From a bacterium (GTDB lineage: Bacteria; UBA8248), in contig OZ251456.1 of assembly GCA_965242545.1 (NCBI GenBank), positions 1,158,756-1,222,755 of the forward strand: 64,000 bases of DNA, given 5' to 3'. Position numbers and translations under genes: made by a program. A model generated the notes under the pieces. It searched no databases and was not told where the DNA came from. It was given only the letters and a program-made list of their open reading frames with translations. Position 1 is the stretch's first letter; the number at the start of each line of letters is the position of its first letter. Positions 30,658 through 42,583 of this stretch are shown here, piece after piece.

Positions 30658-31650
30658 TCAGGAGTCCATCAGCTCCCTGCATTTTTCCGTCAGCGCGGGG
30701 ATGACTTTCTTGTAGTCTCCCACGATGCCGTAGCGCGCCCGCTGGAAGATGGGCGCCTCGGCGTCCGTGTTGATGGCCACGATGTTCTTGCTGGGCCCGG
30801 CGCCGACCATGTGCTGCATGGCGCCGGAGATGCCCACGGCGATGTAGAGGTTCGGGCTCACGATCTTGCCCGTCTGGCCCACCTGCATGGGCGTCGGCAC
30901 CCAGCCGGCATCCACGGCGGCGCGGCTCGCGCCCACCGCCGCCTTGAGAACCTTGGCGAGTTCCCGGAGGTACTCGAAATTCTCCGGCCCGCCCAGGCCG
31001 CGGCCGCCGCTCACGACGATTTCCGCGTCCTCCAGACGGACGCCTTCGGCCTCCACCTTCTTCGCTTCCACGAAATTCATCCGAATCTCGTCGGCGTCCA
31101 CCGAAACGCCGATTTCCACGAACTCCCCCTCGCGGCCCTGCTGGATGTCGGCCTGAGGCAGGGCTTTCGCGCGTGTCGAGGCGATGGAAAGCGCGTCCGT
31201 CCTCGAGCGAATGCGGCTGACGGCGCTGCCTCCGTGCACCGGGCGAACGGCGGCGAATTCGCCCCCCTCGATCATGAGGTCCGTGCAGTCGTGGGCGTAG
31301 CTGGCGCCGCGGCGGAAAGCGAGCCTGGGGGCGACGTCCCGCCCCACGGAGGTGTTGGCGACCAGGAAGATGGAAGGGTTCTCCTCCCCGAGAACGGCGT
31401 CGATGACCTTGAGATACGCCGCGTTCGTGTAGCCCGCCAGAACCTCCGATTCGGCCGCCAGCGCCCGGTCGGCGCCCAGGGCGATGAGCCCTTTGGCCAG
31501 TTCCCCGGTTCCGGGGCCGCCGAGGAGAAGCGCCGCGAGGGAGCCTCCTTTTTCGTCCGCCAGTTTTCGTCCGATGCCGCAAAGCTCGCTGCTCACGAGC
31601 GCCAGCTTGTCCCCCGCGCGCTCGGCCAGGATGAGAACGTCGTTCGACAT
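30658..31650 (-). CDS. etfA: Electron transfer flavoprotein alpha subunit
   Basis: [55 protein letters not shown]. Confidence 0.96.
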
Positions 31651-31668
31651 GGCGCTGTTCTTTCTCCC

Positions 31669-32469
31669 CTAGATGATTTTGTCTTCACGAAGGCGAAGCG
31701 CCAGGGCGGCGGCGGCCTCCTCGGGCGATTCGCCTTCGATGAATTCGCAGTTTCCGTCGAACACGGGCTGATACAGCCTGGTGACCTCGAAGGTGGCGGC
31801 CTCTTTTCCGACCAGGCTGCGGTCGATTCCGACCTCCTCCGCGCCCCAAACGGGAATCTGCTTGCGCGAGGCCATCAGGATGCCCTTGACCGAGGGCAGG
31901 CGCGGCGTGTTGATCTCGTTGCTGGCGGTGAGCAGGCACGGGGTGGAGACCTCGACGACCTCCAGTCCGTCTTCCAGGGCGCGCTCGCACCGCAGGCCGC
32001 CTTCCGTTTTCTCCACCTTCTGCAGCTGGCTCACGCTGGGAAGATCGAGCGCCTCGGCGAGGGCGAGGGCGGTGGCGCCGTAGCTCCAGTCGCTGCTCAG
32101 CCTGCCGCAGAGAATCGCGTCGAAGCCCTCCAGCTTCTGAATGGCGGCGGCGAGAATCCGCGCCGCGCCGAAGGCGTCGGATCCCTCGAACGCCTCGTCC
32201 TGGAGCAGGATGGCCTCGTCGCAGCCCATGGCGAGGCATTTCTTCAGCGCGTCCCGGGCTTTTTCGTCGCCCACCGTCAGAACGGTGACCTTTCCGCCGT
32301 GCTCCTCCTTGAGGTTGATGGCCGCCTCGACGGCGTTTTCGCAAAAACCGTTGATGACCGGCGAGACGTTCGCGGGCGGGATGACGTCCATCTTCTCCTC
32401 ATCGACCTTGAAGTCGCGGGGAGGGATGTCCGGGTCCTGCACTTGCTTGATGCAGACGATGATGTCCAA
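31669..32469 (-). CDS. etfB: Electron transfer flavoprotein beta subunit
   Basis: IIVCIKQVQDP, ENAVEAA, LAMGCDEAILL, NTPRLPSVKGILMA; directly upstream of etfA. Confidence 0.93.
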   Translation of the reverse strand: MDIIVCIKQVQDPDIPPRDFKVDEEKMDVIPPANVSPVINGFCENAVEAAINLKEEHGGKVTVLTVGDEKARDALKKCLAMGCDEAILLQDEAFEGSDAFGAARILAAAIQKLEGFDAILCGRLSSDWSYGATALALAEALDLPSVSQLQKVEKTEGGLRCERALEDGLEVVEVSTPCLLTASNEINTPRLPSVKGILMASRKQIPVWGAEEVGIDRSLVGKEAATFEVTRLYQPVFDGNCEFIEGESPEEAAAALALRLREDKII

Positions 32470-32663
32470 AGGGTCGGCTCCCCATCGCTTCGGCCGGTTC
32501 GGGCCTTTTCATGATCGTCCGGCGCGCCCGAACGTATTTTTGTTTGAACCGACGCGGCGGAACTGCCTCAAAATAATGAGGCGGGACGGATGCGTCAACC
32601 GAGCCGGGCGTTTTTCCTCCGTTCCGCGCGTCCATCGGAAAGCGCGGACCGCGCCTTCGCCGT

Positions 32664-32692
32664 TTGACACTGAAAAAAATGCGGGCGATAAG
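32664..32692 (+). promoter_or_regulatory. Putative sigma70 promoter of mrp/apbC
   Basis: TTGACA-N17-GATAAG. Confidence 0.5.
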
Positions 32693-32769
32693 GTGACGGC
32701 GGCGTGAGCAAATGACTTGCGACAGATGATTTTCCGTGAATTTCCCATCCCGGCCCAGAGGATTCTTCA

Positions 32770-33861
32770 ATGTCGGAAGCGACGGAAGCCCAGGTTCTGG
32801 AGGCTCTGAAAGGCGTGAGAGACCCCGAGGTCGGAAAAGACCTCGTGAGCCTCAACATGATCAAGGATGTGCGGATTTGCGGGGACGCGGTCGCCTTTAC
32901 GCTGGAGCTCACCACGCCCGCGCATCCGCGCAAGGAGGAGTTCGAGCAGGAGTGCAAACTGGCGGTCGGCGCCCTGGCGAGCGTGAACGCGGTGAGCGTG
33001 CGGGTGACGAGCCGCGTTTCCGCCAGGCCCGCCATGGCCGGCAAGATGGACATCGAGGGCGTCAAGAACATGATCGCCGTGGCCAGCGGAAAGGGCGGCG
33101 TGGGCAAATCGACCGTGGCCGTGAACATCGCGCTCTCCCTGAGCAGGGAGGGGGCGAAGGTCGGGATGCTGGACGCGGACATTTACGGGCCGAGCCAGCC
33201 GCTGATGCTGGGAATCCCCAAGGCGCAGCCCGTCGCCGAGGGGGAGAACAGGATACGGGCCCTGGAGGCGCACGGCCTGAAAGTCATGTCGATGGGGTTT
33301 CTGGTCGATGAGGACAGCCCCGTCATCTGGCGCGGCCCCATGGTCATGCGAGCGCTGGTGCAGTTTCTGAGCGAGACGATTTGGGGGGAGCTCGACTACC
33401 TCATTCTGGATTTGCCGCCCGGCACGGGCGACGCGCAGCTGACCATCGTCCAGCAGGTCTCGCTGGCGGGCGCCGTCATCGTCAGCACGCCCCAAGACAT
33501 CGCCCTGCTTGACGCGCGCAAGGGCCTTCAGATGTTCAGAAAAACGGACGTGCCCATTCTCGGAATTATCGAGAACATGAGCTACTACGAGTGTCCGGAA
33601 TGCGGGCGCCGCGAAAACATTTTCGACACCGGAGGCGGCGAGAAAGCGTCGCGGCGCTACGAAGTGCCCTTTCTGGGCGCCATCCCGCTCGACATCAAGG
33701 TGAGGGTGGGGGGAGACTTCGGCGTCCCCGTCGTGGCGGGAGAGCCCGGGCACCCCGCGGCGATGGCGTTTCGGGAAGTCGCCGGAAAGGTGGCCGAGCA
33801 GGTGGCCATCGCCAACGCATCGGGGCCGATTTCCGTTCCCGAGCTCAAAATCATCGGATAG
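32770..33861 (+). CDS. apbC: Mrp/ApbC (NBP35-family) Fe-S cluster carrier ATPase
   Basis: N-terminal DUF59-like domain, ASGKGGVGKST, DADIYGPS, WRGPM, DLPPGTGD, ENMSYYECPEC. Confidence 0.94.
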   Translation: MSEATEAQVLEALKGVRDPEVGKDLVSLNMIKDVRICGDAVAFTLELTTPAHPRKEEFEQECKLAVGALASVNAVSVRVTSRVSARPAMAGKMDIEGVKNMIAVASGKGGVGKSTVAVNIALSLSREGAKVGMLDADIYGPSQPLMLGIPKAQPVAEGENRIRALEAHGLKVMSMGFLVDEDSPVIWRGPMVMRALVQFLSETIWGELDYLILDLPPGTGDAQLTIVQQVSLAGAVIVSTPQDIALLDARKGLQMFRKTDVPILGIIENMSYYECPECGRRENIFDTGGGEKASRRYEVPFLGAIPLDIKVRVGGDFGVPVVAGEPGHPAAMAFREVAGKVAEQVAIANASGPISVPELKIIG

Positions 33862-34015
33862 GAAGGGAGAGAAGCTCCCGGGCCGGGAAATTCCGCGCCG
33901 GGTTCCGCGGTGCCGGTGGTTGTTCTTCCATGCCCGCGAGCGCTCGGGAGGACGCGCGCTTTCGTCCTGGCGCGCGGCCCGCTTTTTTTGAAGGTTCGAT
34001 GGAGGGGCTTCCCCG

Positions 34016-34963
34016 ATGGCGAAAGTCGTGCTGGTCGATCCGCTTTTTTCGGCTCCCGCATGGCGCGTGCCTTCGGACTGGCTGGGCGCCGGGCGCGAGG
34101 TCGTCGCGCCGGAGGAGTTCACCCCGGAGGCCATCGAGCCGTTGCTGCCGGAGGCGGAGGGCATCCTCACGGTGTTCCGGCCCGTCTCGCGCGAGATGAT
34201 GGACATGGCGCCCAATCTCAAGGTGGCGGCCAAGCCGGGCGCCGGAGTGGACAACATCGACGTCGAGGCGGCGACCGCGCGCGGCGTCATGGTGTGCAAC
34301 GTCGAAGGCGTCCGGGGACGCTCCGTGGCCGAGCATTCCTTCTTCATGGCGCTCTACCTGGCGCGCCACGCCTGGATGAGGGACGAGCAGGAAAAATGGG
34401 AGCACGAGCCGGCCGTGCAGCTGGGCGGCAAGTCGCTGGGCGTCGTGGGGCTCGGCGATATCGGCCGCAGGGCGGCGCGCATCGGCCACGGCTTCGGGAT
34501 GGAGCTGCTCGTCAACACGCGGACGGAGGATCCCTCTTACGTGCCCGAGGCGAAGCTCGAGTTCCTCTCTTTCGACGCCCTGTTGCCGAGAGCGGATTTT
34601 TTGATTCTGTGCATGCCCCTGGCGCCGGAGATGAAGGGAATCCTCCATCGGGAGAATTTGCTGAAAATGAAGCCCGAAGCCATTCTCATCAACGTTTCCA
34701 GGGGCCCGGCCGTGGTGAGCGGCGATCTCCTGGAAGTGATGCGCTCGGGACATCTGGGCGGCGCCGGACTCGACGTCACGGACCCGGAGCCCCTGCCGAA
34801 AGAACACGGCCTGTGGGGGCTGGAGAACGTCATCATCAGCCCGCACCACGCCTCCCGGACGCCGGAGACGCAGGCCGCCGCCATGGAACGTACGGCGGAG
34901 AACATGCGCATGGCGCTGGCCGGTGAGAAGCCCGTCAATATCGTGAATCCCGAGGTCCTCTGA
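34016..34963 (+). CDS. D-isomer-specific 2-hydroxyacid dehydrogenase
   Basis: GAGVDNID, SVAEH, GLGDIG, INVSRG, LDVTDPEP, SPHHAS. Confidence 0.92.
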   Translation: MAKVVLVDPLFSAPAWRVPSDWLGAGREVVAPEEFTPEAIEPLLPEAEGILTVFRPVSREMMDMAPNLKVAAKPGAGVDNIDVEAATARGVMVCNVEGVRGRSVAEHSFFMALYLARHAWMRDEQEKWEHEPAVQLGGKSLGVVGLGDIGRRAARIGHGFGMELLVNTRTEDPSYVPEAKLEFLSFDALLPRADFLILCMPLAPEMKGILHRENLLKMKPEAILINVSRGPAVVSGDLLEVMRSGHLGGAGLDVTDPEPLPKEHGLWGLENVIISPHHASRTPETQAAAMERTAENMRMALAGEKPVNIVNPEVL

Positions 34964-35018
34964 CCCGGAGCTTTCCCACGCCCCAAGGATCGACATGATC
35001 GGTCGGGCCGGAGCCTGA

Positions 35019-35876
35019 ATGCCGTTTGAAGCCCTCGCCCTGATTCCGGCCCTTTTCTTCTCCCTCTCCAGCATCATGACCAGGAAGGGGCTGGACGGCA
35101 GCACGCCGCATACGGGCAGCCTCATCGTCCTCCTCACCCAGATCGTCTTCTTCTCCCTTTCTCTGGCGCTGGTGGATTTCGGGGAAATATCGCTTTCGAT
35201 CCACTGGCTGGCCTTTCTGGCGGCGGGGCTTTCCTCGCCCGCGCTGGCGCTGCTGTTCCTGTTTCGCTCGATTCAGCGAATCGGCGTGGCGCCCACGAGC
35301 TCCATCTCCAACACCCACGCCATTTTCGGGGCGCTTTGGGCATTCGTGTTTCTCGGAGAGCGGCCCTCCGCCATGGTGTGGCTGGGCATCCTTTTCGTCG
35401 CGGCGGGGGTGTTCTGGATGTCGAGCGGAGGAGGCCCGCTAGCAAGAGGGCGCGGGCTGGTTCTGCCCTTCATGGCGGCCTCTTTTTTCGGGCTGGCTCA
35501 CATGCTCAGAAAGGTGGGGCTGGGGGGCGTGGACTCGCTCCTTTTCGGGGGATTCCTGCAATCCCTCGCGGCGTCCGCCGCAGGCCCCCTGTTTCTGAAG
35601 ATCAGCGCGGGCTGGAGTCCGTTCGTCTTCAACAGGCCCTCCGTCAGAAATTTCATCTGGGCGGGCCTCTCGATGGCCGCCGCCCAGCTGGGCCTGCTGG
35701 CCGCCTTGAGCAGGTGGGACGTCTCGCGGGTTTCGCCCCTGGTCGCGACGGTGCCGCTCTTCACGCTCGCGCTCACGCCCCTGATTCTCGGAGACCGGGA
35801 GAAGATCACCTGGCGCATCGTCCTGGGCGCGCTCTTCACCGTCGCGGGCGTGATTCTGGTGACCTCGCTTCGGTAG
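35019..35876 (+). CDS. EamA/DMT-family transporter
   Basis: About 10 TM helices in two repeats; IGVAPTSSI, VSRVSPLVATVPLF, LGDREKITW. Confidence 0.88.
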   Translation: MPFEALALIPALFFSLSSIMTRKGLDGSTPHTGSLIVLLTQIVFFSLSLALVDFGEISLSIHWLAFLAAGLSSPALALLFLFRSIQRIGVAPTSSISNTHAIFGALWAFVFLGERPSAMVWLGILFVAAGVFWMSSGGGPLARGRGLVLPFMAASFFGLAHMLRKVGLGGVDSLLFGGFLQSLAASAAGPLFLKISAGWSPFVFNRPSVRNFIWAGLSMAAAQLGLLAALSRWDVSRVSPLVATVPLFTLALTPLILGDREKITWRIVLGALFTVAGVILVTSLR

Positions 35877-36093
35877 ACGGGCGCTCGCCTCGTCGAGGAC
35901 GCGCCGAAAACGCCGGCGGCCCGCTCTCCGCGCTTCAGGAAGCGGTTGACAGAACGCGCGATGAGCGTTAATTCAAAATACAGGAATGGTCGGGAATGCC
36001 TGAATTTTGCTTTTTCGCTTTACAAGAGGCCATGAACGAGACGCGGCGCCGAATACATCATCCCCCGTCGAATCATTCCAGGAGGATGACATC

Positions 36094-36450
36094 GTGAATA
36101 CGTCCCCCGCCAGGAGCCGATCCGCCGCGTCCGTAGCCGCCGAGATTCTCCGGCGGATTTTCGGGAATCTCGAATACGGGCTCAACTTTCGCATGTGGGA
36201 CGGCTCGAGGCTCTCTGTGGGGCGGGAGGTGGCGCCCGTCACGGTGATTTTCACGTCGCTGGCCGCCTTCAAGCGCGTTTTGCTGAATCCCGAAGCGGGC
36301 GCCTTTGCGGAAGCCTATTGCGACGGCGCCATCGACTTCGAGGGCGACCTGTTCGAGGCCATGAGGGTGGGGGACAGCCTCGACGAGATCGACCTGAACG
36401 TGACGCGGAAGCTCATCTACTCCCTGCGGATATGGAAACTCTCCGAATGA
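36094..36450 (+). CDS. Stand-alone N-terminal domain of a Cfa-type lipid methyltransferase
   Basis: FRMWDGS...VTVIF...AFAEAYCDGAIDFEGDLFEAM resembles the N-terminal domain of long-form Cfa proteins. GTG after GGAGGA; stop overlaps the next ATG (ATGA). Confidence 0.7.
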   Translation: MNTSPARSRSAASVAAEILRRIFGNLEYGLNFRMWDGSRLSVGREVAPVTVIFTSLAAFKRVLLNPEAGAFAEAYCDGAIDFEGDLFEAMRVGDSLDEIDLNVTRKLIYSLRIWKLSE

Positions 36451-37559
36451 GCGCCTGGGACGTTCTCATCGTCGGAGGCGGCCCGGGAGGCAGCGCGGCC
36501 GCCCGGGAGCTGGCGAAGCGCGGCCGCCGTGCGCTCGTCCTGGACGCCGCGTCGTTCCCCCGCGTCAAACTCTGCGCGGGCTGGGTGACGAAGCAGGTGC
36601 TGGCGGACCTGGAAATAAAGCCGGATGAATATCCCCATACCATACAGCCGTTTCAAAGCGTGTTCCTGGGCTATGACGACAAACTCCTCGAGACCCGGTG
36701 GAGCGAGCCCGCGAGCTACGGCATCATCAGGAGCCAGTTCGACGCCTGGCTCCTCAGGCGCGCGCAGGAAGAAGGCGCCGAGGTGCGGGAGGGCGCGCGG
36801 GTGCGGGGCGTCGAGAAGACGGCCCGGGGCGTGCGCGTCGATATCGGGGAGGAGAAGATCGAGGCGCCCCTCGTCATCGGGGCGGGGGGGCATACCTGCC
36901 CCGTCGCCAGGGCTTTCGGGGAGGTTTCGAGCCGGGAATCCGTCGTTTTGACGCAGGAGAGCGAGACGAACGTTGGAGCGGCCAGGCTCCGCGCCCTGGC
37001 GCCCAACTACGGCCTGCCCGAGCTGTTCGCCGAACCCGACTTCAAGGGCTACGCCTGGTATTTCACCAAAGGGGATTTCCTGAACATCGGCGTGGGCTGC
37101 ATCGGCAAGCGGCCGAGCGTCCACGAGCGGCTGGAAATTCTGCTGGACAGATTTCGCCGGACGGGGAGGCTAACCCCGAAGCTGACGCTCACGAAATTCC
37201 GCGGCCACGCCTATTCCGTCCATCGCAGACACGTTCGGCGGCCGGCGGGCGACGGGTTCGTCCTGGTCGGCGACGCCGCCGGGCTGGCCAAGGACTTCAG
37301 CGGGGAGGGCATCGGCCCCGCCGTCCGCAGCGCCAGGATGGCGGCGCGGGCGGTGGACGCGCATTTGAATGCGGGAGAGGATCTCGCCCAATACGGCAGG
37401 GACATCGCCGAGAGATACGGGAGCGGAGGAGAAGGAGCGCTCGACAGGCTGATAGATCGCGCGCCCGACAGGCTTCTTTTCGGCGTGGCCAGGTTCATCT
37501 GCGGCAACGCCTGGCTCAGGCGCCGGCTGGTTCTGGAAGGCGCGTTCGGGATAGGCTGA
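36447..37559 (+). CDS. Geranylgeranyl-reductase-family FAD-dependent oxidoreductase
   Basis: DVLIVGGGPGGS, FPRVKLCAG, IRSQFDAWL, YAWYFTKG, GDAAGLAKDFSGEGI. Confidence 0.88.
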   Translation: MSAWDVLIVGGGPGGSAAARELAKRGRRALVLDAASFPRVKLCAGWVTKQVLADLEIKPDEYPHTIQPFQSVFLGYDDKLLETRWSEPASYGIIRSQFDAWLLRRAQEEGAEVREGARVRGVEKTARGVRVDIGEEKIEAPLVIGAGGHTCPVARAFGEVSSRESVVLTQESETNVGAARLRALAPNYGLPELFAEPDFKGYAWYFTKGDFLNIGVGCIGKRPSVHERLEILLDRFRRTGRLTPKLTLTKFRGHAYSVHRRHVRRPAGDGFVLVGDAAGLAKDFSGEGIGPAVRSARMAARAVDAHLNAGEDLAQYGRDIAERYGSGGEGALDRLIDRAPDRLLFGVARFICGNAWLRRRLVLEGAFGIG

Positions 37560-37577
37560 AAAAGCGGCGAGGCGGCT

Positions 37578-38498
37578 ATGGTGAAAGAGAGAACGAAGGA
37601 ATTCGACGCCCGGGCGATCTCGCACCACTACGACAAATCCAACGATTTCTACGAGCAGTTCCTGTGCGAGAACATGGTCTACACGTGCGCCTACTACCGG
37701 GAGCCCGACGGCGATCTCGGCCAGGCCCAGCGCGACAAAATGGACCTCGTCTGCAGAAAGCTCAGGCTCTCGCCCGGAGATGATTATCTCGACATCGGCT
37801 GCGGGTGGGGTTCGCTGGCGATATGGGCGGCGAAGCGCTTCGGCGTCAACGCGACCGGGGTTACGCTCTCGCGCGAGCAGGCGAACTGGGGTCAGGAGTG
37901 GGTTCGGCGGGAGGGACTCGAAGGCAGGTGCGCAATTCACCACATGGATTACCGGGATTTCCCGGAAGAGCGCTCTTTCGACAAAATTTCCGCCATCGGC
38001 ATCATCGAGCACATCGGCATAGCGAACTATCCGAACTACTTCGCCTCCGTCAGAAACCGCCTGCGGGACGGGGGACTGTTCCTGAACCACGGGATTTCGG
38101 CCAACAAATTCTGGAAGCACACGAGTCAGTTCGAGTTTCTGTTGCGCAACGTTTTTCCCAACGGAGAGCTGGACAACATCTCCCACGTTCAGGACGTGAT
38201 GGAGCGGGCGCGCTGGGAGATACTGGACGTGGAGAATCTGCGGCTTCACTACGCGCGCACGTGCAAGCAGTGGTATGAGAAATTCGAGGAAAACGCCGCG
38301 AAAATCAAGGAGCTGGTCGGCGAGCGCGTCTATCGGGTGTATCGAATCTGGCTGGTTTGTTCGTCGGCCGCGTTTTTCTCGAATTCGCTGGGCCTTTATC
38401 AGGTTCTGGCCCAGAAATACGAAAGAAACCACCATCGCCATGATCCGCCGACGCATCGGGAGGACATTTACAGGGCGATGCTTGGCCTTGACGGTTGA
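37578..38498 (+). CDS. cfa: Cyclopropane-fatty-acyl-phospholipid synthase family SAM methyltransferase (catalytic domain only)
   Basis: ISHHYDKSNDFY, MVYTCAYY, LDIGCGWG, GVTLSREQ, IEHIG, LNHGI, HYARTC. Confidence 0.9.
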   Translation: MVKERTKEFDARAISHHYDKSNDFYEQFLCENMVYTCAYYREPDGDLGQAQRDKMDLVCRKLRLSPGDDYLDIGCGWGSLAIWAAKRFGVNATGVTLSREQANWGQEWVRREGLEGRCAIHHMDYRDFPEERSFDKISAIGIIEHIGIANYPNYFASVRNRLRDGGLFLNHGISANKFWKHTSQFEFLLRNVFPNGELDNISHVQDVMERARWEILDVENLRLHYARTCKQWYEKFEENAAKIKELVGERVYRVYRIWLVCSSAAFFSNSLGLYQVLAQKYERNHHRHDPPTHREDIYRAMLGLDG

Positions 38499-38522
38499 CT
38501 CCGGCCGGCGCCTGCGCGCGGC

Positions 38523-39515
38523 ATGAGTCTTGACCCTCCCTTGCGTGTTCCCCCGTTCCGTCCCGCCTGGTATTGTCCGGGCCCTCATCTGCAAACCGTT
38601 TGGGGATATTTTTTGCGAAAACGTCCGCGAATCGCTTGGCGGCGGGAGCGTTGGGACACGCCCGACGGCGATTTTCTCGAGGTTGATTTTCTCGACGCCG
38701 CCGCGCCGGACGCCCCGACGCTGCTCATTCTGCATGGCCTGGAAGGCTCCTCCTCCTCTCATTACGTGCGCGGAACGGCGGCGAAGGCGCGCGCGCTCGG
38801 CTGGCGGACGCTGGCCCTGAACTTCCGCTCGTGCGGCGGCGCGACGCCCCGGAAGCCCCGGTTCTACCATTGCGGGGAGACGGGCGATCTGGATTTCGCG
38901 GCGCGGCGGATTTCGGAGAGGTTCGACGCGCCCCTGGCGCTGGCGGGCTTCTCTCTGGGGGGAAGCGTCCTGCTCAAGTGGCTGGGGGAGCGGGGCGAGA
39001 AGGCGCCCTCGCGCGTTTTCGGGGCGGTCGGCATATCCGTCAGCTTCCAGCCCGGCGCCTGCGCGAAGGTTCTGGATTCCCCGCCGGGCTATCTCTACAG
39101 ACGGCACCTGCTGGACAGCGCCAAGCGAAAGGCCCGCCGCCTAGCCGAACTGCGCCCCGGCCTCATCGAGGCGGACAAGGTGAGGCGCGCGCGAACGTTC
39201 CACGAATACGATCGCCTGGTCATCGCGCCTTTGTATGGCTTTCGAGACGAACTGGATTATTACGAAAAAGCCGACGCTTCCCCCTATCTGCCTCGCATTC
39301 GGGTGAAAACGCTTCTCCTCTCCTCGGAGGACGACCCCATCGTTCCGCCCCATGTTTTTCCCCATGGGCAGATAGAGAACTCCGCGTGGCTCAGCGGGGT
39401 TTTGTCGAAAAAAGGGGGACACGTGGGCTTCGTGTCCGGGTCGGACGTTCGCTCGCCGGTCTATTGGGCCGAGGATCGCGCGCTCGCGTTTCTGCGAGAC
39501 TGCCTGAAATCGTGA
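38523..39515 (+). CDS. YheT-family alpha/beta hydrolase
   Basis: GPHLQT, LHGLEGSS, NFRSCGG, GFSLGG nucleophile elbow, SEDDP, GGHVGF. Confidence 0.9.
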   Translation: MSLDPPLRVPPFRPAWYCPGPHLQTVWGYFLRKRPRIAWRRERWDTPDGDFLEVDFLDAAAPDAPTLLILHGLEGSSSSHYVRGTAAKARALGWRTLALNFRSCGGATPRKPRFYHCGETGDLDFAARRISERFDAPLALAGFSLGGSVLLKWLGERGEKAPSRVFGAVGISVSFQPGACAKVLDSPPGYLYRRHLLDSAKRKARRLAELRPGLIEADKVRRARTFHEYDRLVIAPLYGFRDELDYYEKADASPYLPRIRVKTLLLSSEDDPIVPPHVFPHGQIENSAWLSGVLSKKGGHVGFVSGSDVRSPVYWAEDRALAFLRDCLKS

Positions 39516-39561
39516 GGCGCGGCTTGCGGCGGATGGGGTGGAGCGCGGGGAGTGACGCCAG

Positions 39562-40656
39562 CTATCTGTGACGGTCGTATTCCCTGGCCGCCAGTTTCCG
39601 GCGCCGCTCCATCGCGCAGAAGATGAGGCGATCCAGCATTTGCGGGTAGGTAACGCCGGCGGCCTGAATCATCCGGGGGTATCCGCTCAGCTGCGTGAAC
39701 CCGGGCAGCGTGTTCACTTCGCTGACGTAGGTCTCGCCCGTTTTCTCGCGGTAGAAGAAATCCACGCGGGCGAGGCCGGAGCAGCCCAGGGCGCGGAACG
39801 CGCTTCGCGCGTAGGAGCGGATGCCCTCGGCGACGGATTCTTCCACGGGGGCGGGGATGATCAACTCGGCGCGCCCCTCCTGATATTTCGCCTCGTAGTC
39901 ATACCAGCCGTCTTTCGTCCTGATCTCCATGAGCGGACTGGCGAGGAAATCGCCCAGGCGCGGGCCCTCGAGCACGGCGCACTCCAGTTCCCGGCCCCGG
40001 GAATGCTCCTCGATCAGCGCCTTGCCGTCGAACCTGAAGGCGTCCTCCACGGCGTCGGGGAGCGCGCGGGGATTTTCCACGCGGTGGGCGCCGACGCTGC
40101 TGCCCGAGGAGGAGGGCTTGACGAACAGCGGATATCCGATTTCCTGGGCCGCCTTCGCCAGAATGGCGTCCCGCTCCTGCGCCCAGGTCTCGGGATGCAG
40201 GGTGAGGGAGGGCAGGACGGGCAGCCCCGCCGCGCGCAGCACCGCCTTGGCCACGGCCTTGTCCATCGCGATGGCGGACGACGCGCACCCGGAGCCGACG
40301 AAGGGGGCGTCCGACAACTCGAACAGTCCCTGGAGGGTGCCGTCCTCCCCGAAGGTCCCGTGAATCATGGGGAAGAACACGTCGATGCCTGGCTTCTCAC
40401 CATTCGAAGCGCGGCGAAGCGGTTCCCCGGTCGGCGTGCCTGAAAAAAGAACCTCGCGGCCGTCCCCGGCGGACGCCTCCGGGTGCGGCAGGATGAACCA
40501 TGCGCCCGATTTCGCGATGAGAATGGGGACGACGTCGTATTTTCGGGCGTCCAGTTCCGCCATGATGGCCCTGCCCGAGGCGAGGCTCACCTCGTGTTCG
40601 GTGGAGCGGCCGCCGAATATCACGCCGACCTTTATTTTTGGGGATGACGGCGGCAT
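39562..40656 (-). CDS. ddl: D-alanine--D-alanine ligase
   Basis: FGGRSTEHEVSLASG, HGTFGEDGTLQG, MDK, VKPSSSGSS, YDYEAKY, ARVDFF, EVNTLPGFT. Confidence 0.97.
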   Translation of the reverse strand: MPPSSPKIKVGVIFGGRSTEHEVSLASGRAIMAELDARKYDVVPILIAKSGAWFILPHPEASAGDGREVLFSGTPTGEPLRRASNGEKPGIDVFFPMIHGTFGEDGTLQGLFELSDAPFVGSGCASSAIAMDKAVAKAVLRAAGLPVLPSLTLHPETWAQERDAILAKAAQEIGYPLFVKPSSSGSSVGAHRVENPRALPDAVEDAFRFDGKALIEEHSRGRELECAVLEGPRLGDFLASPLMEIRTKDGWYDYEAKYQEGRAELIIPAPVEESVAEGIRSYARSAFRALGCSGLARVDFFYREKTGETYVSEVNTLPGFTQLSGYPRMIQAAGVTYPQMLDRLIFCAMERRRKLAAREYDRHR

Positions 40657-40712
40657 GGCGGGGAGTCCTCGACCGGCCGGATGCGGCGGCTCTTCAGGGG
40701 GGGGCGAATGAA

Positions 40713-41279
40713 TCAGCGTATCAGTTTCGAGAGGAATTTGAAATCCTCGGAGCCGGCGGTGCGGAGCAGATCGAACAGCGCCTGTTCGGTCGTGGTCGGG
40801 ACGGCGCCGGCGCGTTCGAGGGCGGAAAGTCCCGTTCGCCAGTCGAGCTTCGAGCGCGAACAGAGGGCGTCGGCCACCACGTGAACGATAAAGCCGTTTT
40901 CCAGCAGGTCGAGCGCCGTCTGGTAGCAGCAGACGTACGTCTCCGCTCCGGTGAGCAGGATTTTCGTTCGGCCGGACTCACGCAGGCGAGGCGAGAACGC
41001 CTCCGCTCCGCAGCAGCTGAACGACATTTTCGCTATGGGCGAGAAGTCGGGGACTTTCGCCGCCACCTCCTTCACCGTGGGCCCGAGTCCTTTAGGGTAC
41101 TGCTCCGTGACGATCGCCGGAAAACCGAGGCGGGACGCCGCCTCGGCCAGCGTCCGGATGCGCCCGACGACCTGGGCGCGGACGCTCTCTTTCATGGCGG
41201 CCATGAGCCTTTCCTGCGCATCGACGATGAGCAGCAGGCATTCTTCGGGCTGGAGGCGAAACGAATCGACGCTCGTCAT
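40713..41279 (-). CDS. Isochorismatase-family (YcaC-like) hydrolase
   Basis: LLIVDAQERL, TEQYPKGLGPTV, KMSFSCC, VCCYQTALDL. ATG at 41279. Confidence 0.9.
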   Translation of the reverse strand: MTSVDSFRLQPEECLLLIVDAQERLMAAMKESVRAQVVGRIRTLAEAASRLGFPAIVTEQYPKGLGPTVKEVAAKVPDFSPIAKMSFSCCGAEAFSPRLRESGRTKILLTGAETYVCCYQTALDLLENGFIVHVVADALCSRSKLDWRTGLSALERAGAVPTTTEQALFDLLRTAGSEDFKFLSKLIR

Positions 41280-41593
41280 GCGCTCTCCACCAGGCGGAAA
41301 AGGAAATCCATGCCCTTTGCGCGCTTTTGTCCGCCGCCTCACGGCCCCTCCACGCGGGAGCGGGCGGGGCGCGTCTCATTCTCCCCCGGATGCGCCTTCC
41401 GCCTGAAATCATCCCGAATGGGCGCGGCTCTTGGAATATGACTTCCCGGGAAAATATCGCCAAACCTTATTACGGAGCCCCTCAGGGGTCAAGGAACGGG
41501 CGCGAAGCCTTGATTCCCGCATGGGCGTGGGATAGCATCGCCCGACGAAATGCTTGCCCGTCGGGGGAAATGAACAACCGAGAGGGGAGAGAC

Positions 41594-42583
41594 ATGCCCG
41601 GCAAGGCGAAAGTCGTGCTGACCGATTACGTCTGGGAATCCCTGGACGTGGAGAAGGAGATTCTGGGAGAGCTGGCCGATATCGTCGCCATGCGGACGAA
41701 GACGCCGGCGGAATTTCTGCCGGAGGCCGCCGACTGCGACGCCGTGTTGAACACCTACGCGGGGCCGATCGCGCGGGAGGACATGGCGAAGATGCCGCAT
41801 TGCAAAATTATCGCGCGATACGGCATCGGAGTGGACACGATCGACCTGGACGCCGCCACGCGGGCGGGCATCATCGTTACGAACAACCCCACCTATTGCA
41901 TCAAGGAGGTCGCCGAGCACGCGATGGCGCTCCTGCTCGCCTCGGCGAGAAAGGTGGCTTTTTATGACAGACAGGTGCGGGCCGGCGGGTGGGAGGTGCC
42001 CCCGGGCAAGCCGATGTTCCGGCTGGCTGGCGCCGCGCTCGGGCTGGTGGGCTTCGGCAACATCGCCCGCATGGTGGCCGTTCGCGCCGCCTCGTTCGGC
42101 ATGAGGGTCTTGTTCAGCGATCCGTTCGTGGAGGAAGGACAGTTCGACGCGCCGGGGGAGAAGAGTGAACTGGCGGAAATGTTCGCGCAGTCGGATTTCG
42201 TCTCCATCCATCCGCCGCTGATCCCCCAGACGCGCGGGATGATGAACGATGAGGCCTTCTCGCAAATGAAGAACACTGCCTTCCTCATCAACTGCTCGCG
42301 CGGGCCGATTGTCGATACGGACGCCCTGGTTCGCGCCCTGGATTCGGGCGAGATCGCCGGATGCGCCCTGGATACGACCGATCCCGAACCCCTGCCCGAT
42401 CCGCACCCCCTGCGCGGCCGTGAAAACGTGATCATCAACCCCCACGCGGCTTGGTACAGCGAACAATCCATGGTGGGACTCCAGCAGGGCGCGCCCAATG
42501 AGGTGAGGCGCGTCCTCTCGGGCGAGTGGCCCCTGAACGTGGTGAACGGGGACGTAAAGGGCAGGAACAGGGCGGGTTTGTAG
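41594..42583 (+). CDS. D-2-hydroxyacid dehydrogenase (CtBP/SerA-like)
   Basis: RYGIGVDTID, EVAEHA, GFGNIA, NCSRG, LDTTDPEP, NPHAAWYS. ATG 41594 after AGAGGGGAGA. Confidence 0.92.
   Translation: MPGKAKVVLTDYVWESLDVEKEILGELADIVAMRTKTPAEFLPEAADCDAVLNTYAGPIAREDMAKMPHCKIIARYGIGVDTIDLDAATRAGIIVTNNPTYCIKEVAEHAMALLLASARKVAFYDRQVRAGGWEVPPGKPMFRLAGAALGLVGFGNIARMVAVRAASFGMRVLFSDPFVEEGQFDAPGEKSELAEMFAQSDFVSIHPPLIPQTRGMMNDEAFSQMKNTAFLINCSRGPIVDTDALVRALDSGEIAGCALDTTDPEPLPDPHPLRGRENVIINPHAAWYSEQSMVGLQQGAPNEVRRVLSGEWPLNVVNGDVKGRNRAGL

Follow-up and report, generated by a model that had tools for sequence, protein, structure and literature searches.

A split BfaB-type methyltransferase flanking a TmpA-type flavoprotein: a probable three-gene operon for mid-chain methylation of fatty acids in uncultured Nitrospinota and other bacterial phyla

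Results

We have analysed a stretch of 64,000 nucleotides (hereafter the window) from the genome of an uncultured Nitrospinota lineage, many members of which come from sponges, and describe three consecutive genes at positions 36094–38498 of its forward strand that probably form an operon for methylating membrane fatty acids in mid-chain and represent a split-gene version of the pathways leading to 10-methyl fatty acids. These genes, referred to below as the triad, encode a stand-alone N-terminal domain of a methyltransferase of the cyclopropane fatty acid synthase (Cfa) family, a flavoprotein of the geranylgeranyl reductase (GGR) family and the catalytic domain of the methyltransferase. On sequence grounds the methyltransferase is of the BfaB type, split in the interdomain linker and combined with a TmpA-type reductase. 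The domain identities of the proteins, their clade memberships, the conservation of the triad across phyla with its tight coupling, and the lack of a BfaA-type reductase in the genome (one contig of 3.09 Mb, 99% complete) were established directly.

Two routes to 10-methyl fatty acids have been described, bfaAB of actinomycetes and tmpBA (Blitzblau et al. 2021, PMC7791843). The first, bfaAB or tmsAB, is the tuberculostearic acid pathway of Actinobacteria (Machida 2017, PMC5660069; Blitzblau 2021), in which the Cfa-like BfaB forms a 10-methylene (stearate) intermediate that is reduced by BfaA, an NADPH-dependent flavoprotein without meaningful homology to TmpA (PMC7791843). The second, the ‘ten-methyl palmitate’ operon of Desulfobacter, Desulfobacula, Marinobacter hydrocarbonoclasticus and Thiohalospira halophila, was already called independent of BfaAB; its TmpB made 10-methylenepalmitate (10-methylene-16:0) in E. 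coli, and its GGR-like TmpA is the presumed, never demonstrated reductase (PMC7791843). The supplement of the same paper provided our TmpA, TmpB and BfaB reference sequences, and a literature search for follow-up work on TmpA, for split Cfa genes and for genetic studies of 10-methyl fatty acids in either Nitrospinota or Methylomirabilis found nothing beyond it.

The N-domain gene (36094–36450, 118 amino acids (aa)) starts with GTG (its congeners use ATG at the same codon), and direct reading of the sequence places a Shine-Dalgarno-like AGGAGGA on the forward strand (36079–36085), 8 nt before this GTG. Its TGA shares bases with the ATG of the flavoprotein gene (36447–37559, 370 aa) in an ATGA overlap, and the catalytic gene (37578–38498, 306 aa) follows on the same strand after a spacing of 18 nt. 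An earlier note on this DNA had described a separate 118-aa Cfa N-domain gene coupled by ATGA to a GGR-family flavoprotein gene, a catalytic-only Cfa downstream that begins exactly at the HHYD..NDFY region, and a YheT-type hydrolase gene behind it. Coordinates and domain matches agree with the first of these points. The second is borne out by the match of the 306-aa protein to the profile of the CMAS domain (PF02353, E-value 4.4e-88), which begins at profile position 4, and by its N-terminal start, ...DARAISHHYDKSNDFYE, i.e. the beginning of the catalytic domain. The third holds by a match to PRK10985, though one below the family cut-off. A scan of positions 34900–39800 for promoters and terminators gave nothing convincing ahead of the operon, and terminator-like matches occurred at the background rate.

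The triad is widely conserved. Its three genes stand in the same order in every one of the 24 further genomes from the taxonomic family of the window genome, and relatives of the flavoprotein with 50–65% identity were found in Tectomicrobia, pelagic Nitrospinaceae, Binatia, Rokubacteria/Methylomirabilota, Thermodesulfobacteriota, Planctomycetota and Myxococcota-type metagenome-assembled genomes (MAGs). We surveyed the 80 best related genome loci by calling open reading frames (ORFs) and searching these with the proteins of the window. N-domain, flavoprotein and catalytic genes were contiguous and in this order at 68 of the 80 loci, 37 of which had a 4-nt overlap of the first two genes. At two further loci, both from Thiohalorhabdus, the order was N-domain, catalytic gene, flavoprotein, with the N-domain still a separate ORF; the N-domain was located approximately 2 kb upstream at one locus and was undetected at another, the triad was cut by the contig end at three, and the flavoprotein gene stood alone at five, all from one sublineage. 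The contiguous triad spans at least six phyla with otherwise unrelated neighbours, its loci coming from Nitrospinota, Tectomicrobia, Binatia, Rokubacteria/Methylomirabilota, Thermodesulfobacteriota and Myxococcota-type MAGs; in Binatia, for instance, the surrounding genes are wholly different and the triad is intact. The arrangement is thus not unique to one assembly, and its contiguity and start/stop overlaps across phyla support the view that the three genes are one conserved functional unit. Because the N-domain gene is under purifying selection (ratio of non-synonymous to synonymous substitution rates, dN/dS, 0.16–0.48 against nine congeners) and the triad recurs throughout the family and at most of the related loci, the arrangement reflects neither chance ORFs nor an assembly artefact.

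Several of the surveyed loci show individual features. The five with an isolated TmpA-type flavoprotein gene (L082, L085, L088, L098 and L113) come from MAGs assigned to ‘delta proteobacterium’ or Thermodesulfobacteriota, with neither an N-domain gene nor a CMAS gene within 5 kb; their sole CMAS match lies elsewhere, with 38–44% identity and in an open frame of 428–508 aa. In the Thiohalorhabdus MAGs (L115:3710–6131 and L116:830–3235) the N-domain ORF and the CMAS gene behind it are separated by 22 nt in one case, where both share a frame, and by 6 nt in the other, where the frames differ; both the CMAS protein and the flavoprotein form long branches within the triad clades, and this gene order is perhaps intermediate between the fused tmpBA and the triad. 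Locus L086 (record title Nitrosotalea sp. SMAG_U15217), on a contig binned as thaumarchaeal, has a triad almost the same as those of Rokubacteria and is the sister of L090 in the CMAS tree; mis-binning of a bacterial contig is a more probable cause than presence of the triad in an archaeon. At L076:4974–6116 (a Planctomycetota MAG) and L060:4956–6113 the flavoprotein gene is broken up into two ORFs; a frameshift, a stop within the gene or a MAG sequencing error could explain this.

The catalytic gene of the triad accounts for the one CMAS match in the whole genome. Its product shares 45% identity with BfaB, 37–38% with TmpB and 36% with E. coli Cfa, and scores 317 bits against the NCBIfam model CfaB, below the cut-off. 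In the CMAS tree, the four BfaB sequences share one clade with the catalytic domains of all triads (support 100/99), and a 100/99 branch splits this side from the Cfa enzymes of E. coli, Aquifex and Lactobacillus. The pair of TmpB sequences from Desulfobacteraceae is placed beside E. coli Cfa (100/99), and the pair from Marinobacter and Thiohalospira joins the E. coli Cfa group with weaker support (93/89). Judged from these sequence relationships, the catalytic half is not an orthologue of TmpB and groups with BfaB. A search of the whole genome for an orthologue of BfaA returned none; the best match had an E-value of 4.5e-6 and covered residues 54–193 only.

We compared active-site residues in an alignment of 17 triad enzymes with 3 Cfa, 4 BfaB and 4 TmpB. 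The five bicarbonate ligands C139, E239, H266, I268 and Y317 (E. coli Cfa numbering) are invariant throughout, corresponding to C37, E144, H171, I173 and Y225 in the window protein, which also keeps the S-adenosylmethionine (SAM) motif. In the earlier note, the retained E, H and Y residues had been taken to leave plain cyclopropanation possible; because the ligands are equally invariant in BfaB and TmpB, for which methylene formation is experimentally established, they do not discriminate between ring and methylene formation, and the caveat is uninformative. The residue preceding the ligand Cys varies between enzymes: it is Ser in seven of them (the Cfa of E. coli, Aquifex and Lactobacillus, CmaA1, CmaA2, PcaA and MmaA2) and Thr in the four BfaB, the four TmpB, MmaA1, UmaA and every triad enzyme, the window protein having Thr36 in VYTCAYY (codon 37683–37685). 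The products are cyclopropanes for CmaA1, CmaA2, PcaA and MmaA2 and, for MmaA1, a trans-olefin carrying an allylic methyl; the TmpB that share the Thr are two separate pairs in the tree. The site is a possible marker separating ring-forming from olefin-forming enzymes of the Cfa family, and we regard it as a lead rather than a rule.

The flavoprotein, the presumed reductase of a methylated olefinic intermediate, is a TmpA-type flavin adenine dinucleotide (FAD) protein of the GGR family. It scores 172.6 bits against TIGR02032 (GG-red-SF, cut-off 158.8) and aligns over its full length with TmpA of Marinobacter and Thiohalospira (39% identity, E-value 3e-68), identity with TmpA of Desulfobacteraceae being 30–32%. 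In a maximum-likelihood tree, all published TmpA and the triad flavoproteins form one clade (100/99), outside which are placed the archaeal GGR 3OZ2 and generic GGR-family paralogues from the same class. The FAD-binding motif is present, and alignment to 3OZ2 revealed the GGR motifs: the conserved Cys (Cys43, in KLCAGW), YAWYFTKGx5GxG, where Thr replaces the Pro of the YxWxFPK-type motif, and GDAAG. The nearest structures to its AlphaFold2 model (predicted local distance difference test, pLDDT, 88) are those of GGRs, with a TM-score of 0.76 to 3OZ2 and sequence identities of only 19–23%. Assignment of the protein as a halogenase or monooxygenase was rejected, as such matches were weaker in both sequence and fold, the GGR model scored above its cut-off and the GGR motifs are kept. 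The genes for electron-transfer flavoprotein (ETF) 4–5 kb upstream were considered as a dedicated electron donor, a role that found no support, as they are on the opposite strand and their synteny is limited to Nitrospinota and Tectomicrobia; at the compared loci no electron donor gene is conserved beside the triad.

The 118-aa protein is a stand-alone N-domain of the Cfa/BfaB type with an SCP2-like fold, predicted to bind lipid. Its score against Pfam DUF7884, which represents the N-terminal domain of Cfa-type enzymes, is 28.4 bits (cut-off 27), and it also matches positions 5–82 of NCBIfam CfaB. A profile built from 32 free N-domain orthologues aligned to residues 14–83 of T. curvata BfaB with 94% probability and reached 19% with E. 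coli Cfa, far below the value for BfaB. The AlphaFold2 model made from the 32 orthologues (pLDDT 88) has its best matches in the Protein Data Bank in the Cfa N-domains of 7QOS (Aquifex) and 5Z9O (Lactobacillus), followed by SCP2 lipid-carrier folds. Among the 10 longer N-domain hits checked, none was fused to a GGR-type reductase, a fusion that would have pointed to the reductase as the partner of the N-domain; nine had a CMAS domain, seven of these together with a DUF7884 match. According to a statement in PMC9851988, which cites Hari 2018, the N- and C-domains of E. coli Cfa remain associated and co-purify when expressed separately.

The hydrolase gene (38523–39515, forward strand, 330 aa) encodes a YheT-like alpha/beta hydrolase (PRK10985, E-value 1.8e-60) and stands outside the conserved triad. 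It follows the triad solely in Nitrospinota and Tectomicrobia and, among the surveyed loci, is absent at the pelagic Nitrospinaceae locus L033 and in Binatia, Rokubacteria and other phyla. It does not belong to the conserved unit, since it is missing at L033 and at all loci outside Nitrospinota and Tectomicrobia; we rejected it as a core member of the pathway and consider it a lineage-restricted downstream neighbour.

The wider surroundings (window positions 30658–35876 and 39562–42583) belong to a gene-order block common to the window genome and to contigs of Tectomicrobia and pelagic Nitrospinaceae. To the left of the triad it comprises ETF beta and alpha genes (reverse strand), an Mrp/ApbC-like ATPase, a 2-hydroxyacid dehydrogenase and an EamA transporter, and to the right a D-Ala-D-Ala ligase (reverse strand), an isochorismatase (reverse strand) and a second 2-hydroxyacid dehydrogenase. 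The block of the relatives has an extra GFO/IDH/MocA oxidoreductase, which is absent from the window.

Discussion

Substrates, products, the association of the two enzyme halves and the reductase activity of the flavoprotein are what we infer from these observations. The 118-aa N-domain and the 306-aa catalytic protein would associate non-covalently and so rebuild a BfaB-type lipid methyltransferase, which would carry out a SAM-dependent attack on the cis double bond of a phospholipid-bound monoenoic chain (16:1 or 18:1) and release an olefinic methyl-branched chain, most likely the 10-methylene form. The TmpA-type FAD protein would then reduce the C=C bond to a saturated mid-chain methyl branch, as in 10-methyl-16:0, with electrons from a donor presumably encoded elsewhere. 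Of the convergent route to mid-chain methyl-branched chains suggested earlier, methylation followed by reduction stands as the best reading, while the convergence on a GGR-type enzyme had already been published (PMC7791843). Nor can we retain the proposal of a new type of pathway, since the pairing of a Cfa-like TmpB with a GGR-like TmpA appeared in 2021 (PMC7791843) and the window flavoprotein falls in the TmpA clade.

Indirect support at the level of organisms is given by the presence of the triad in Methylomirabilota and Thiohalorhabdus and by the abundance of Me-C16:0 and Me-C18:0 in high-microbial-abundance sponges (PMC7840048). The typical lipid of Ca. Methylomirabilis is 10MeC16:0, and 10MeC16:1 delta-7 is also present there (PMC6581649).

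A number of points weigh against the proposed pathway. TmpA was inactive in E. coli and yeast, so that reduction of a methylene fatty acid is yet to be demonstrated for any GGR-type enzyme (PMC7791843). Every residue needed for cyclopropanation is retained in the window protein, and five related genomes have the flavoprotein gene without an adjacent CMAS gene. A protein search with the flavoprotein of a Methylomirabilia MAG gave only Rokubacteria/Methylomirabilota MAGs and did not link the cassette to Ca. Methylomirabilis oxyfera itself. The Ser/Thr correlation covers approximately 20 enzymes, and the lipid products proposed here are those deduced for an uncultured lineage.

Three other explanations were weighed, and the conservation of the triad across phyla with translational coupling, together with the placement of its catalytic half in the BfaB clade, argues against all of them. 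According to the first, which we consider unlikely, the methyltransferase would be a plain cyclopropane synthase that happens to be split, and the flavoprotein would be unrelated or accessory to it, as it would be if it saturated the side chain of a polyprenyl or menaquinone molecule in the manner of MenJ. In its favour, the CMAS half has the SAM motif and all bicarbonate ligands, and its score against CfaB, even below the cut-off, points the same way; moreover, the characterised members of the GGR family act on isoprenoids, and the reductase role of TmpA is itself presumed (PMC7791843). However, the same ligands occur in the methylene-forming BfaB and TmpB, the catalytic half is placed with BfaB and apart from the cyclopropane synthases, and Thr rather than Ser precedes the ligand Cys. 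An unrelated flavoprotein gene would not be expected to persist between the two halves of an enzyme, with start/stop overlaps, across at least six phyla.

Slightly less probable still is a non-reductive role of the flavoprotein, which might desaturate, isomerise or otherwise oxidise the methylated chain, giving a methyl-branched fatty acid that is unsaturated or modified further, in analogy to UfaM/UfaD of furan fatty acid synthesis. Pairs of a methylase and an FAD enzyme reportedly also serve the furan fatty acid pathway, and the occurrence of 10MeC16:1 delta-7 beside 10MeC16:0 in Ca. Methylomirabilis (PMC6581649) would fit such a role. Against it stand the reductase signature of the window flavoprotein, with the conserved Cys and the GGR fold, and the lack of a third, UfaO-like gene conserved with the triad. 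UfaD belongs to a different flavoprotein family. Finally, we regard it as highly improbable that the pair methylates and then saturates an isoprenoid double bond (of a quinone tail, a polyprenol or a carotenoid): the flavoprotein does belong to the GGR family and a methylated olefin does resemble an isoprene unit, but both halves of the methyltransferase are nearest to enzymes acting on phospholipid acyl chains and no isoprenoid genes are conserved beside the triad.

If the triad indeed serves the two-step mid-chain methylation proposed here, its implications would reach beyond the window. Mid-chain methyl-branched fatty acids (Me-C16:0 and Me-C18:0) make up at least 20% of all fatty acids in high-microbial-abundance sponges, where the bacterial producers are unknown (PMC7840048). 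Sulfate reducers, actinomycetes and Ca. Methylomirabilis are commonly traced by the lipid biomarkers 10-Me-16:0 and 10- and 11-Me-18:0. With a three-gene cassette recognisable by sequence, metagenomes could show which organisms make such lipids. A Cfa-type enzyme that is split by nature would also offer a means to study how the N-domain works, the many new homologues could be used for testing the putative reductase activity of TmpA-type GGR proteins, and the Ser/Thr site beside the bicarbonate-binding Cys is a cheap and testable candidate marker of ring versus olefin formation. A bolder view, which we hold to be doubtful, is that the triad, rather than the fused operons tmpBA and bfaAB, is the main non-actinobacterial route to mid-chain methyl-branched fatty acids, among them the unexplained ones of sponge symbionts and the 10MeC16:0 biomarker of Methylomirabilota; the fission would then be functional, with the free N-domain, coupled in translation to the reductase, as a shared lipid-presenting subunit that hands the acyl chain to the methylase and then to the reductase within a ternary complex.

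Comparison with known systems

Within the literature searched, the natural fission of the enzyme, the gene order with the flavoprotein between the two halves, the combination of a BfaB-type methylase with a TmpA-type reductase and the breadth of the system across uncultured phyla seem to be undescribed. The closest operon is tmpBA, which likewise joins a Cfa-family methyltransferase with a GGR-family flavoprotein of the same clade and for which the presumed chemistry is also methylenation followed by reduction to a 10-methyl acyl chain. It differs in that TmpB is one full-length polypeptide, is encoded ahead of TmpA and groups with E. coli-type Cfa, whereas in the window two halves flank the flavoprotein gene and the catalytic one groups with BfaB. 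With bfaAB the triad shares the two-step logic, and both its N-domain and its catalytic half are nearest to BfaB; however, BfaB is fused, with a long interdomain linker, and its partner BfaA is another kind of flavoprotein, whereas the partner in the window is of the GGR type.

Taken together, the two halves resemble the Cfa enzymes of E. coli (6BQC), Aquifex (7QOS) and Lactobacillus (5Z9O) in the SCP2-like N-domain, the CMAS domain, the SAM motif and the bicarbonate ligands, but the window enzyme is naturally split, belongs to another clade, has Thr in place of Ser before the ligand Cys and is encoded with a putative reductase. The flavoprotein, in turn, shares its fold, the FAD motif, the Cys, YxWxF(P/T)K and GDAAG with GGRs such as Ta0516 (3OZ2), the Sulfolobus GGR (3ATQ), ChlP/BchP and MenJ; it is set apart from these by its low identity to the GGR structures, by its membership of the separate TmpA clade and by its tie to the gene of a fatty-acyl methyltransferase rather than to isoprenoid genes.

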